From Escherichia phage GoldenSnicker: DNA of 64,000 nucleotides. The translations under genes and the position numbers were made by a program. The notes under the pieces were generated by a model, which was not told the DNA's origin, did no database searches, and saw only the letters and a list, made by a program, of their open reading frames with translations. The DNA lies in sequence record OR896832.1; one strand, written 5' to 3'. Below, piece after piece: positions 1,259-45,290 of the stretch (its first letter is position 1; each line of letters opens with the position of its first letter).

Positions 1259-1567
1259 TCATTTAGACAAATAATCATTCTGTGCAATCCGGTCAGCATG
1301 TTCCGGCGTTACGTCAATTGCAATCACTTTAACGCGTGCTTTCTTGCGACCTGGGTTTTCTCGTAACCAGTGCTCATGACCGTGAACATTTTTATACTGC
1401 GATGCTTCTTCGAAGGTACGGATCGGACCTGGGTAATCAGCGTAAAGGATCTCTAGATCTTCAGTGATGTAAAAATATACATCGTAATTGCTGTTCTCTA
1501 GCTTAAGCAGAGACTTTCGGAACATTGGGAGATTTTCGCGGGTAAATTCAAAGATATTATCTTTCAT
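1259..1567 (-). CDS. hypothetical protein, member of HxHW/AxDV paralog family
   Basis: 102 aa; shares YxYI(T/D)EDL, HGHEHW and VIAIDV motifs with five neighbouring ORFs. Confidence 0.55.
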   Translation of the reverse strand: MKDNIFEFTRENLPMFRKSLLKLENSNYDVYFYITEDLEILYADYPGPIRTFEEASQYKNVHGHEHWLRENPGRKKARVKVIAIDVTPEHADRIAQNDYLSK

Positions 1568-4663: not shown

Positions 4664-4843
4664 TTACATAACAATCACGCCAGCCGTTGAAAGTTGATGT
4701 TTCAACTGAGCATTTTCTGCTACCGTCAAATCAATGATTTCTTGTGACGCTGCAATCATATAGCCATTGGTGATATTGTTTTGCATCAGTTCAATGGTCT
4801 CTTCGTTGTAGCGGATTTTAGCGATGATTTCGTTGAAGTTCAT
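4664..4843 (-). CDS. hypothetical small protein (start at internal ATG)
   Basis: listed ORF 4664-4909 begins by reading through the promoter cassette; ATG at 4843..4841 follows a GGAGA SD. Confidence 0.45.
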   Translation of the reverse strand: MNFNEIIAKIRYNEETIELMQNNITNGYMIAASQEIIDLTVAENAQLKHQLSTAGVIVM

Positions 4844-4877
4844 AATTGATTCTCCTAGTTCGTTTCGGTATGTGTGT

Positions 4878-4906
4878 AGTATAGGGGATCGGTGATCCCC
4901 TGTCAA
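4878..4906 (-). promoter_or_regulatory. sigma70-type early promoter with palindromic spacer
   Basis: TTGACA (4906..4901), 17-bp spacer ggggatcggtgatcccc, TATACT (4883..4878). Confidence 0.55.
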
Positions 4907-4919
4907 CAACTTTTTTGAA

Positions 4920-5264
4920 TTATTTTTTCATGAGCTTAATGGCTTCTTCCATAGCCAACACATTTCGATAGTTAGGGTATCTTGTTAGATCGTCATACAT
5001 TCGCTTAAGGGTGGAAACTTCCTCAAACTCTGGGTTTTCAAGATACAATTGAACGAATTGTTTCTCTACCATCTCTGCTTTTAGCTTGTCTGCTTGTTCC
5101 TGTTCATATGATTTAGTTGGACCCAACACCAACAAAATGATAAAGGTGATCAACGGGCTAATGATCAACGATAGGAGAACATAACCGATAACGCTACGGT
5201 TTAAACGGCTTGCGTACATGCCTACCAGGAAAACAAAAAGGATATAGATAAACAGAAAGAACAT
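4920..5264 (-). CDS. small membrane protein
   Basis: 114 aa with two N-terminal hydrophobic segments and a charged C-terminal tail. Confidence 0.5.
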   Translation of the reverse strand: MFFLFIYILFVFLVGMYASRLNRSVIGYVLLSLIISPLITFIILLVLGPTKSYEQEQADKLKAEMVEKQFVQLYLENPEFEEVSTLKRMYDDLTRYPNYRNVLAMEEAIKLMKK

Positions 5265-5271
5265 ATAATGG

Positions 5272-5745
5272 TTACTCCTTATTTTCGCGCTCGTACTTTT
5301 CGAAATAAAATTCTACTGGCTGGTCGTGGATTGACAGCAAGCCAAAGCGTTTAGCCGCTCGCAACCCCATATTGCGCTGAATGTACTTCTGGAAGTTCTC
5401 TCGTATACACTTACGCCAGTATTCTAAGCCCATACAGCTTTTATAAAGATTGCATTGCACACACGACGGATTCATGTTATCAAGTATATCATGTTCCGGT
5501 TTATGCATTCCTACAACCTTATACTTCCACGATCCATCATCATTACGGGCAATTCGTCCCTTTTCATCATAGACTACTTTTGAGCGTCGCAATACTGGTT
5601 TGATGTGGTCTGCGTGCCAGCGATCCCCTAGTTCCTCGCCACAATAGGCACAACGTCCACCGTATTTCATTTTCAGGATCTGGCGTTGCTCTTTCTTTGA
5701 CAATTTTTTAGGTTTAGGGGCTTTCGCCCCTTCATTATCACACAT
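5272..5745 (-). CDS. HNH endonuclease (free-standing, homing-type)
   Basis: CAYCGEEL...HADHIKP...CVQCN HNH motif; overlaps 3' end of the ligase gene by 8 nt. Confidence 0.65.
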   Translation of the reverse strand: MCDNEGAKAPKPKKLSKKEQRQILKMKYGGRCAYCGEELGDRWHADHIKPVLRRSKVVYDEKGRIARNDDGSWKYKVVGMHKPEHDILDNMNPSCVQCNLYKSCMGLEYWRKCIRENFQKYIQRNMGLRAAKRFGLLSIHDQPVEFYFEKYERENKE

Positions 5746-7234
5746 CGAATACCTCTTTTACTGTATTTGCAGTGGTCTTGTCGTAGCGAATACGTTTGAT
5801 GATCGGGAGAAATAAAGAGAACTCCGGTTCATCTTCTTTACGTGATTTGCTGCGGATATACCCGTTGCATGTCATCTCAATGACTTTTCCAATCAGGTTA
5901 TGACGGTCAGCCCATAACATTTCTCGGTCAAGTTCATTTCGACGATCGAACGGAATTACACGTTCGATACCATCATCACCTTTTTCGGTTGTAGTGTCGG
6001 TTAATCCCGATCCGGTGTTAGTCATCATTCGTCCACACGCACTACGGACAGTAAAACCGCCTACCTTATTGGGGTCTTTACTATGCGGATATACATCAAC
6101 AATTTCCGCGTCGAAGTCAATCACTTCTTTAAATTTAACCTGATCTTTACTACGGCGATCTTCAAATACACCATGCAGATTTTTAAGGATAATACCTTCT
6201 AAGCCCATGTTTACATAGCGATGATATACTTCGCGAGCTTCATCGATATTGTTAACTACAGTATTTTCGATTATCTGAACACGAGGATCGTTAAGTTCTT
6301 CAACAATCTGTTTTAGTTCTTCGAATCGATCTTTATATTGCTTCGTTGCTTTCTCGTTTCCGTAATACACATCACGGTCGATAACATCCCAGACAGTGTA
6401 AACAATACATTGGGCTTCTTCTTTTGGAATAGTTCCTTTCAGTGATTTGTTGAGGATACCATTTCCGGTCTGACGATCCGCAACAACGGATTCTTTTACT
6501 GCTTCCGCTACTGGCGTTAATGGTATTTCCTCTTCTTCAAATATCCATGACAGAGTACCATCATAAACGCTCTCAACGAAGTTCTGCGCTGGTGTTTGCG
6601 AAAGGGTAGGCATATATACCAATTCGCCATCTAGAACAATTCCACGGCCTCGTAGACGCTCTAAAACAGAAAACAAATCATCCAGCCACTGGTAGGTATT
6701 ACCTGAACGGGTATAGATTGCTAATGTTTCCCCGTCAATATCAGCCATACCACGAGCGCCATCACTTTTAAGCTGTGCATATGCCGGATATTTGATATTA
6801 GCAATAGCCTTATCAGAATATGACGATGCAAGGTGGCATGGTTGCTGGGGGATCAGTTTCTTCCATACCTTGTTTGCAGTGGTAGCGGAACAACCGCATT
6901 CCAGATCACGATTCAGGACCATCATTGCAACTTTAGCATCATCTTCTGACAAGCAAGTCAGAGTATCGGTAACTAGCTGTAATGCTGCATTACCAGTTAC
7001 TTGACGCGTGGCAAGTTTATTTTTAAAGACCTGCAATGCACCGGATAAAGACAATACAGACGAATAGCGCGATGGTTTATCGTATTTCTTTACGCCAAAC
7101 GTAACCTGTTTGCAATATGCCAGATAAAAGCATTCTTTCAGCGTTTCATTGCTTGCAGATTCTTTCAGAATCTTTTCTTTCAGCGATGTTTTGTCTGTTG
7201 CTGCAAGCTGATTAATGATATTAAGAATTGACAT
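5738..7234 (-). CDS. 30: ATP-dependent DNA ligase
   Basis: colinear with T4 ligase as recalled (KLTGNAA, RDLECG, AQLKADGAR lysine motif, DGELVY). Confidence 0.85.
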   Translation of the reverse strand: MSILNIINQLAATDKTSLKEKILKESASNETLKECFYLAYCKQVTFGVKKYDKPSRYSSVLSLSGALQVFKNKLATRQVTGNAALQLVTDTLTCLSEDDAKVAMMVLNRDLECGCSATTANKVWKKLIPQQPCHLASSYSDKAIANIKYPAYAQLKSDGARGMADIDGETLAIYTRSGNTYQWLDDLFSVLERLRGRGIVLDGELVYMPTLSQTPAQNFVESVYDGTLSWIFEEEEIPLTPVAEAVKESVVADRQTGNGILNKSLKGTIPKEEAQCIVYTVWDVIDRDVYYGNEKATKQYKDRFEELKQIVEELNDPRVQIIENTVVNNIDEAREVYHRYVNMGLEGIILKNLHGVFEDRRSKDQVKFKEVIDFDAEIVDVYPHSKDPNKVGGFTVRSACGRMMTNTGSGLTDTTTEKGDDGIERVIPFDRRNELDREMLWADRHNLIGKVIEMTCNGYIRSKSRKEDEPEFSLFLPIIKRIRYDKTTANTVKEVFDV

Positions 7235-44092: not shown

Positions 44093-45094
44093 TTAGTAAT
44101 GGCTAAAACCTTCGGTTACATCTTCAACCACATAGTAACGATGACAGCGCATTTTGGCATTCGCATAATCTTTCGGGATACTTACAACGTGACGCGGATC
44201 AACTTTACATTTAATGATTCGGCCTCGTCCACCGCCATAGTGCGGAATATAGTGTTTCGCTGCAACGTGGAGGCCATTAGAGCAAGTGCGATCATCATCT
44301 GGGTCCACGTCTTTACGCTTCATTTTAACCGTGCGCCCTGGGCTATTATCAAACGTATGCGTAAAGAAATCTTTATAATCAACATCAACACGTTTCCATG
44401 CATAGAAGCAACCATCTTCCCCGATCTCAATGTCGTTGTGCTCTAAGAAGTCAAATAGACGATCTACGGCCTTACGGCTAGGGTTTTTCTTGCACTTCTC
44501 AAAGAAGTTCAGATAGTGCGTATATGGCTTATTCTCTTTAATCGACTCCACAACTCGACGAGTCAGATTATTATCAAGAACAATATTATGATAATACACA
44601 ATACCATTTTCGATACGGAAAGCGCCGTGATAATATACTTCAACCGCTTTCTTAATGTCAATCAGCGTAATTGCTTTAATAAAATCATTCTGCTTAACTG
44701 CTTCCAGTGCTTCATTAAAGTTAACATGTGATGGATCAGCAGTATAAACAATGTCACCACATGTAATAGTAATAAACTTAGTTGAGGCTATGGCTACGAT
44801 TTTTGAGGAAGTAGTCACGGGCTTTTTTGCGCGTTCACCGCCTTTTCCTTTACTGGTTTTACGGCGTGCTTTACGTTTTTCTAGTGCCTTGCGGCCTTCC
44901 GCTACTGCGTCTTTCTGAATCAGTAATACACGGGAAGCAGTGCGACGAGATACACCAAATGCTGCCGCAAGTGCTTCGCGGGTAGTAAACTTACCTTCAC
45001 CCCACTGTTTAGCCAGTTTGATTTGTTTCGCAGAATCCAGGCATTGAACGTTACGGTCAGAGACGGTGATTTTTGCTTTAGTCATAGTATTCAT
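44093..45094 (-). CDS. rIIB: rIIB protein
   Basis: 333 aa adjacent to rIIA; N-terminal HTH-like segment; assigned by size and synteny. Confidence 0.6.
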   Translation of the reverse strand: MNTMTKAKITVSDRNVQCLDSAKQIKLAKQWGEGKFTTREALAAAFGVSRRTASRVLLIQKDAVAEGRKALEKRKARRKTSKGKGGERAKKPVTTSSKIVAIASTKFITITCGDIVYTADPSHVNFNEALEAVKQNDFIKAITLIDIKKAVEVYYHGAFRIENGIVYYHNIVLDNNLTRRVVESIKENKPYTHYLNFFEKCKKNPSRKAVDRLFDFLEHNDIEIGEDGCFYAWKRVDVDYKDFFTHTFDNSPGRTVKMKRKDVDPDDDRTCSNGLHVAAKHYIPHYGGGRGRIIKCKVDPRHVVSIPKDYANAKMRCHRYYVVEDVTEGFSHY

Positions 45095-45147
45095 TCCTCT
45101 ATTAGTTGGGCGACTCTCGCCGCCCGATTCACATCATTATACCAGAA

Positions 45148-45279
45148 TTATTTTGCTTCTACAACCTTGCGGATTGTGCGGTCTGATACATTATAGATTC
45201 GTGCCAGTTCGCCTTTAGTCAAGCCGCGAGCGTATTGTTTACGGATGGTTTCTTTCTGGATATCGGTCAGTTTAGTCAT
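45148..45279 (-). CDS. 43-aa helix-turn-helix peptide
   Basis: hand translation MTKLTDIQKETIRKQYARGLTKGELARIYNVSDRTIRKVVEAK with AGGTGA SD; HTH-like LTKGELARIYNVSDRTIRK. Confidence 0.45.
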   Translation of the reverse strand: MTKLTDIQKETIRKQYARGLTKGELARIYNVSDRTIRKVVEAK

Positions 45280-45290
45280 AATATCACCTC

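Follow-up and report, generated by a model that had tools for sequence, protein, structure and literature searches.

The interval between rIIA and rIIB in Escherichia phage GoldenSnicker, an RB49-like relative of T4 (Krischvirus), harbours a short open reading frame of 43 codons (ORF43), whose product appears from sequence comparison to be homologous to the helix-turn-helix (HTH) module with which RIIB begins in other T4-type phages. The best explanation of this arrangement is that ORF43 encodes a detached RIIB-type HTH module, which is coupled to rIIA and plays a free DNA-binding role in the rII locus; we regard this account as probable, though well short of certain. Few genes in genetics are as famous as rIIA and rIIB, and the picture that emerges here is that of an RIIB HTH that would be separable and, in one lineage, would be kept as a free copy under stronger selection than RIIA or RIIB. 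ORF43 is already an annotated gene; its kinship with the RIIB module, the variation in HTH copy number and the strong constraint have apparently not been described, as far as we found.

Gene order and expression signals of the rII locus

The window analysed here is a single stretch of 64,000 nucleotides (OR896832.1), and the features of its rII locus are collected in Table 1. Between positions 44900 and 45500 it displays 98–99% nucleotide identity with 58 Krischvirus genomes. Read along the minus strand, gp39 and several small ORFs come first, followed by rIIA, ORF43, rIIB, three small ORFs and gp52, and the identities of rIIA and rIIB are also backed by the annotation of near-identical Krischvirus genomes. 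The start of rIIB can be placed at either of two ATG codons. The one at 45085 was chosen in the RB49 annotation; its Shine-Dalgarno spacing of ∼10 nt is normal and it is the likelier start, since the GAGG motif would lie only 1 nt away from the alternative at 45094. Within the window there are no further copies of the HTH module, whether linked to a nuclease or otherwise, and a search for known RNA elements between 44800 and 45600 returned a sole match, a spurious lncRNA far under threshold.

Table 1. Features of the rII locus of GoldenSnicker, in minus-strand order (positions in the window)
Feature	Position	Strand	Remarks
rIIA, 702 aa	45291..47399	-	ORF list; PHROG match; RIIA annotation of relatives; weak GHKL ATPase hits
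rIIA stop TAA	45293..45291	-	
Shine-Dalgarno GAGGTGAT of ORF43	45290..45283	-	one base past the rIIA stop
ORF43, 43-aa HTH ORF	45148..45279	-	ORF finder; ATG start; encodes MTKLTDIQKETIRKQYARGLTKGELARIYNVSDRTIRKVVEAK
ATG of ORF43	45279..45277	-	
Weak -35 TTGTAG	45164..45159	-	within the last codons of ORF43
Stop codon of ORF43	45150..45148	-	
ORF43-rIIB spacer, PeSL-type	45095..45147	-	promoter and stem-loop, then rIIB Shine-Dalgarno
Extended -10 TGgTATAAT	45144..45136	-	predicted promoter
Stem-loop GGGCGGC-GAGA-GTCGCCC, GC-rich	45125..45108	-	
rIIB alternative ATG, longest ORF	45094	-	GAGG only 1 nt upstream
rIIB, 330 aa	44093..45085	-	PHROG match; start as annotated in RB49
N-terminal HTH of RIIB itself, ∼residues 12-57	44915..45052	-	more diverged

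The original prediction, made from the nucleotide sequence alone, described a 43-residue ORF with a good Shine-Dalgarno sequence between the two rII genes, and this description proved accurate: the exact sequence is in the ORF list, on the minus strand, and is preceded by GAGGTGAT. The GAGG core of this element is situated 7 nt from the ATG, and the rIIA stop and the start of ORF43 are separated by 11 nt in GoldenSnicker. The position of GAGGTGAT immediately after the rIIA stop suggests translational coupling to rIIA, which lies directly upstream and is probably co-transcribed with ORF43. In relatives, GAGGTGA or TGGTGAT is found 4, 10 or 11 nt past the rIIA stop, or the two frames overlap in an ATGA (locus L019). 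The Shine-Dalgarno sequence is kept despite this variable distance; the relation to rIIA would therefore be one of re-initiation rather than of a fixed frame.

ORF43 corresponds to RB49ORF272c in RB49, where it is annotated as 'hypothetical protein'; a literature search for 'ORF272c' turned up no paper. Nearly all relatives carry the same annotation, phage W115 alone naming the product 'DNA binding HTH domain protein'. The peptide matches PHROG 15481, a family whose function is unassigned, over its entire length (E 3.4e-33, residues 1–43 on profile positions 1–43 of 43).

The spacer that follows ORF43 matches the published description of PeSL elements, to judge from its predicted signals. In RB49 and phi1 a PeSL is composed of a sigma70-type early promoter and a stem-loop that attenuates upstream transcription, the position of the stem-loop varying relative to the promoter (PMC2839356). 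A simple promoter scan missed the rIIB promoter of GoldenSnicker on account of its weak -35. The relatives keep a stem-loop of different sequence, and two of them (L007 and L010) have a consensus TTGACA-N17/18-TA(C/T)AAT promoter whose -10 hexamer falls within the loop of the stem-loop. No intrinsic terminator was detected by scan between ORF43 and rIIB, and no U-tract follows the stem-loop. The possibility that the stem-loop serves as operator of the HTH peptide was considered and rejected, as the stems differ among lineages and the recognition helix (helix 3) is invariant; nor is any conserved candidate operator evident in the spacers flanking ORF43.

A separate feature concerns the last codons of ORF43 (GTTGTAGAAG..., window 45148..45170), which are near-identical at the nucleotide level in L006, L007, L009 and L010, synonymous sites elsewhere in the gene being saturated. 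A promoter or UP element of rIIB that overlaps the gene may account for this near-identical 3' end.

Conservation and predicted fold of the ORF43 peptide

A tblastn search of 50,697 phage genomes recovered ORF43 intact in 58 of 58 Krischvirus records. A word-index search of 5.8 billion proteins and protein clusters added little breadth to the family, which comprises only six clusters at 90% identity; all are 43–44 residues long, with identity going from 95% down to 69%, and the variant lies between the two rII genes in every contig that carries one. For five lineages, codon alignments gave pairwise dN/dS values of 0.02–0.34, with synonymous differences at 46–77% of synonymous sites (pS 0.46–0.77), a level near saturation. 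Conservation in relatives had been named as a check in the original prediction, and the unbroken record in Krischvirus, the six diverged clusters and the low dN/dS all speak in its favour. For the same genome pairs the peptide is 69–86% identical, as against 37–40% for RIIA and 52–54% for RIIB, and it appears by this measure to be the most constrained protein of the rII locus.

ORF43 is regarded, as far as sequence tells, as a genuine protein-coding gene because dN/dS is low, the length is constant, the Shine-Dalgarno sequence is kept and conservation is above that of both neighbours. ORF43 could instead be a pseudogene fragment left over from the rIIB 5' end and without function, or an ORF arisen by chance within a regulatory spacer, an idea to which its shortness, its location beside a promoter/stem-loop cassette and its annotation as merely hypothetical lend some colour. 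Such an origin was rejected on the grounds of a dN/dS far under 1 with saturated synonymous sites, a length kept in six lineages and a Shine-Dalgarno sequence conserved despite variable spacing; with conservation exceeding that of both neighbours as a further argument, we hold it to be extremely improbable.

The degree of conservation also bears on the nature of the partner. ORF43 might encode a protein–protein adaptor or an extra RIIA–RIIB subunit that docks via its HTH surface, or else a decoy for host sensors of RIIB. The obligate synteny and the apparent translational coupling with rIIA in every lineage speak for a role of this type. RIIA and RIIB counter RexAB and RIIB alone triggers gasdermin/CARD defence (bioRxiv 10.1101/2023.05.28.542683), and the decoy version draws on this double standing of RIIB as anti-RexAB factor and as trigger. 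Nevertheless, conservation of the peptide far exceeds that of RIIA and RIIB, which is unexpected for a co-evolving partner and is the reason why a co-evolving phage partner is deemed less likely. In addition, the strong positive charge and the invariant third helix favour nucleic-acid binding. An adaptor or decoy role seems to us unlikely.

The peptide has a mass of 5.0 kDa, a pI of 10.2 and a net charge of +6. An AlphaFold2 model, for which the six-sequence ORF43 alignment was the input, reaches a pLDDT of 90.7 and contains helices at residues 6–18, 22–28 and 33–41. The protein is thus modelled as a minimal three-helix HTH with nothing else attached, and a 43-residue HTH that lacks arms may bind DNA only weakly on its own. 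In Pfam the peptide scores 24.5 bits against CENP-B_N (PF04218), over the cut-off of 21.2, and 22.3 bits (E 9e-5) against Sigma70_r4 (PF04545), just under the cut-off of 24.1, many other HTH families scoring lower than these two. Foldseek, whose E-values are not significant for a model of 43 residues, aligns it with the DNA-binding domain of Hin (TM 0.83), the N-terminal HTH of the IstA transposase (TM 0.81, rmsd 1.0 Å) and CENP-B (TM 0.78), with gamma-delta resolvase also among the neighbours, and further with LuxR/NarL-type domains such as NarL, DosR and SdiA (TM 0.63–0.72). The peptide can be placed in the CENP-B_N/psq/transposase-recombinase group of tri-helical HTHs at the level of fold or clan only. 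Among solved structures no RIIB structure was found, and the matches are to generic HTHs.

The original prediction had assigned the peptide a sigma-region-4/LuxR-like HTH and envisaged either a small transcription factor or an anti-sigma-like peptide. As a description of the fold, the assignment agrees with Pfam, AlphaFold2 and Foldseek; as a statement of family membership it fails, and by family thresholds the peptide would belong to neither the sigma nor the LuxR families. GerE does not appear in the Pfam list, which runs to 19 families at E up to 1, and NCBIfam has no family for the peptide, its sigma models being far under their cut-offs. The anti-sigma suggestion finds no backing: neither AsiA nor any anti-sigma family appears in the Pfam, PHROG and NCBIfam lists or among the 50 Foldseek matches listed, and the predicted fold is that of a DNA-binding HTH.

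The idea of a small transcription factor, or of a mimic of sigma region 4 with host RNA polymerase or promoter DNA of the -35 type as its target, takes its strength from the Sigma70_r4 score itself, from weak matches to the C-terminal regions of ECF sigma factors, from the LuxR/NarL-type domains among the structural neighbours and from the very high conservation of the peptide, which fits a conserved host target. RB49 lacks motA and the middle-promoter consensus (PMC1524935), and a sigma mimic could be relevant in a phage without MotA and T4-type middle promoters. However, MotA is also absent from RB43-type phages and yet these have no such ORF, so that a link between ORF43 and the absence of MotA is weak. 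Furthermore, the sigma score falls short of the Pfam cut-off, transposase, recombinase and CENP-B-type HTHs match better, no anti-sigma family matches the peptide and the location within the rII locus would be left unexplained. We give this possibility a small chance.

Kinship with the RIIB N-terminal HTH

Several comparisons converge on RIIB. In the tblastn search, the next matches listed after the Krischvirus self-hits are mostly annotated as RIIB, a ranking read from a spread sample of the matches listed, and in the loci examined the matching part consists of residues 1–43 of Jiaodavirus and Karamvirus RIIB. BLASTP aligns the peptide with Jiaodavirus RIIB at 53% over 40 aa (E 1e-8). When the ORF43 family is compared by hhalign with an eight-member RIIB alignment, it falls onto residues 6–46 of T4 RIIB (98%, E 1.9e-13), and PHROG 609 gives a weak match at its RIIB N-terminal columns. 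Conversely, an RIIB-family HMM applied to 155 HTH proteins assigns the highest single-domain scores among the matches listed to the ORF43 family (25.9–27.9 bits), and only one bona fide RIIB and one 49-aa protein come near them among those matches. The original prediction seems to have overlooked that the nearest phage relatives of ORF43 are the N-terminal HTHs of RIIB; because of these relatives ORF43 is considered an rII-type module and not an unrelated insert.

ORF43 is nonetheless a separate gene. Covalent continuity with RIIB is lacking, as the frame closes with its stop codon and a spacer of 53–62 nt follows, and the split between the small ORF and rIIB is present in all relatives. The RIIB resident in Krischvirus has an HTH of its own, which aligns with T4-type RIIB from residue 15 and is diverged (...VSRRTASRVLL). 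The 43-aa peptide displays no significant similarity to this HTH, and a recent duplication of the resident module was rejected for that reason. The peptide is also only 21–37% identical to the HTH repeats in the RIIB of the metagenomic locus L006, and the two observations together imply that any duplication would be old. In a neighbour-joining tree of 18 modules, built on ∼40 columns and without support values, the ORF43 family is placed next to the Tevenvirinae RIIB modules and the fused modules of the Krischvirus lineage group with the L006 repeats; the grouping of ORF43 with the Tevenvirinae modules is only suggestive.

Elsewhere the two rII genes are contiguous. The original prediction had described them as directly adjacent in T4, and this is borne out for T4-type phages: in Jiaodavirus, Karamvirus and Pseudotevenvirus the start of rIIB abuts or overlaps the rIIA stop, and a survey of 53 IMG/VR rIIB loci for which upstream flank was present has rIIB starting between -8 and +27 nt from the rIIA stop in most of them. 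The Krischvirus locus is the only one of the 53 with an HTH ORF in the gap. In the same survey the enterobacterial T4-type RIIBs have one N-terminal HTH each and none is detectable in more distant RIIBs.

The number of HTHs in RIIB is variable, from one in T4 to three in L006, and the RIIB N-terminal HTH appears on this evidence to be a separable module with variable copy number. L006 encodes an rIIA product of 715 aa, a 43-aa ORF and an RIIB of 459 aa (4685..6064), the latter with three tandem N-terminal HTHs at about residues 8–42, 63–98 and 149–183, all beside the free ORF. Another RIIB, of 775 aa (P0069), has two HTHs. A particularly compact arrangement is seen in L019, where a 44-aa HTH ORF is interlocked with both neighbours, with the rIIA stop in an ATGA and with the rIIB start in a TGATG, leaving no spacer, and where the distance from HTH to HTH across the stop resembles the distance between repeats in L006. 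The overlap and the spacing in L019 fit the split of an RIIB with two HTHs, which is the preferred origin of ORF43.

Three side observations were made on these loci. The rIIA of L019 (57..1296) is just 236 aa long, with an RIIA-like N-terminal portion of 94 residues followed by a short unrelated tail, and a PeSL is absent; either a deletion in this variant or an error of assembly could explain it. In L025 (IMGVR_UViG_638276010_000001, 180.5 kb) the insertion of a single base close to the 3' end of rIIA, at ∼1460..1530, joins rIIA and rIIB in a single open frame of 775 aa from the locus edge, and its relative L024 has the usual rIIA/rIIB overlap; either a sequencing error or real RIIA–RIIB fusions could lie behind this frame. 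The 'RIIB' profile of PHROG 609 (1055 columns) includes an RIIA-like N-terminal part.

T4-type genomes carry many intergenic homing endonuclease genes, and a different origin has to be weighed, in which ORF43 is the domesticated remnant of a free-standing homing endonuclease inserted between rIIA and rIIB, with the C-terminal HTH surviving. Such a remnant might bind the former target site, for example in protection from related endonucleases. A HMMER search of 1.84 billion representative proteins showed that the motif class L-T-x2-Q-x3-I-x3-Y-x2-G-x-T-x2-E-L-A-x2-Y-x-V-S-x2-T-I is widespread, and the best single-domain matches to the ORF43 profile outside the family are the C-terminal HTHs of HNH endonucleases, with P0023 at 49 bits and ∼58% identity, and P0044, P0099 and P0101 among the others; a GIY-YIG-like protein (P0076) and a LAGLIDADG-like protein (P0075) match as well. 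Against this profile the endonuclease HTHs score 41–49 bits and the best RIIB N-terminus tested scores 32.6 bits. Since the motif class is widespread and the endonuclease HTHs outscore RIIB, sequence alone is no proof of descent from rIIB.

Those scores are, however, in part an ascertainment effect, the endonuclease matches being the extreme tail of a very large set of 1.84 billion proteins selected for likeness to the query, and this is why position and context were given more weight than score. ORF43 starts exactly at the HTH just past the rIIA stop, where the RIIB HTH starts in other phages. No nuclease domain or endonuclease remnant is present at the rIIA–rIIB site in any lineage examined, and in cultured phage genomes the best non-self matches, among those listed, are RIIB and not endonucleases. 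We think descent from an endonuclease improbable.

The same profile search brought to light many metagenomic proteins of 220–720 aa (P0007–P0020) with four to seven tandem HTH copies of the type KLTxxQxxxIxxxYxxGxSxxELAxxYxVSxxTIxxI. Three small stand-alone HTH proteins also match, without recognisable rII context, which was judged by sequence or Pfam matches for P0080 and P0142 and by the list of short neighbouring genes for P0143.

Proposed origin and function, and comparison with known systems

In the detached-module account, an ancestral rIIB would have carried HTHs repeated in tandem at its N-terminus, and a split behind the first of them would have set it apart from the rest of the gene. 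In the lineage represented by L019 the split would amount to a stop/start overlap only; in Krischvirus it would involve a stop codon together with a PeSL cassette. ORF43 would then be expressed with rIIA, through a shared transcript and the coupled Shine-Dalgarno sequence, and rIIB would rely on its own early promoter behind an attenuating stem-loop. Acting in trans, the peptide would play the part of the HTH that RIIB carries covalently, which would be to bind nucleic acid or a target in the host. This target would evolve slowly, and would be either a particular nucleic-acid site or a host component that is itself conserved.

The classical r1589 deletion is said to remove the start of the B cistron and yet to keep B function, and this behaviour, if correct, would be in keeping with an N-terminal module of RIIB that is accessory and detachable. 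A passing mention of the r1589 rIIA–rIIB fusion, the only one that a literature search yielded, describes the fusion as hypomorphic. On domain grounds RIIB has been called a specific transcription factor (PMC7824862).

A further step, which we put forward very tentatively and think rather unlikely in its full form, is that Krischvirus-type phages possess a three-gene rII system, in which the RIIB module is released as an RIIA-coupled 5-kDa protein that marks the contact with the real target. A site on replicating DNA that is associated with the membrane is one candidate for this target, and a component of host defence is another. If this were true, the peptide would provide a minimal handle on the RIIA/RIIB mechanism. 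A peptide of 43 residues is a simple reagent for asking what an RIIB-type HTH binds, and the natural split allows one to ask whether the RIIB HTH works in trans. Taken alone, ORF43 adds modestly to annotation and to evolutionary history: the architecture is a variant, but the system is a known one and not of a new kind.

Comparison with known systems places the peptide at different distances from each. The best structural matches are the N-terminal domains of CENP-B and IstA and the domains of Hin and gamma-delta resolvase (TM 0.74–0.83), and IstA, Hin and CENP-B superimpose on the model with an rmsd of 1.0–1.6 Å. Unlike the peptide, these domains are linked to others, either catalytic or likewise DNA-binding, and make use of flanking arms. 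Sigma-70 region 4 and the LuxR/GerE HTH have in common with the peptide the general fold and the pattern L-T-x-x-Q/E...G-x-T-x-x-E-L-A...V-S-x-x-T-I. The peptide nevertheless lies under the Pfam cut-off for the sigma-70 family and is devoid of the other sigma regions (2 and 3), and with respect to LuxR-type proteins it lacks both the fourth helix and the receiver or ligand domain.

The HTHs of HNH, GIY-YIG and LAGLIDADG endonucleases and of the multi-repeat HTH proteins contain a motif very similar to that of the peptide, with identity of up to ∼58% and scores of 41–49 bits. The genomic context of the endonuclease proteins is different, and a nuclease domain is absent from ORF43 and all its relatives. 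Against the RIIB profile, moreover, the endonuclease and multi-repeat proteins score under the ORF43 family among the matches listed.

The closest counterpart is the N-terminal HTH of RIIB itself, which spans approximately residues 6–46 in T4 and 3–42 in Jiaodavirus and corresponds to the N-terminal part of PHROG 609. The two have the same three-helix pattern, L-x3-Q/K-x2-I-x3-Y/F-x2-G-x-T-x2-E-L-A-x2-Y-x-V-S-x2-T-I-R-R/K-V, and occupy the same position, just past the rIIA stop and at the very start of a reading frame. The differences are equally well defined. RIIB runs on after helix 3 into a charged linker, whereas the peptide stops right after that helix and is deprived of both the linker and the C-terminal domain; it is much more basic, with a charge of +6 compared with +1 for the T4 module; and it coexists with a second, diverged HTH carried by the resident RIIB.
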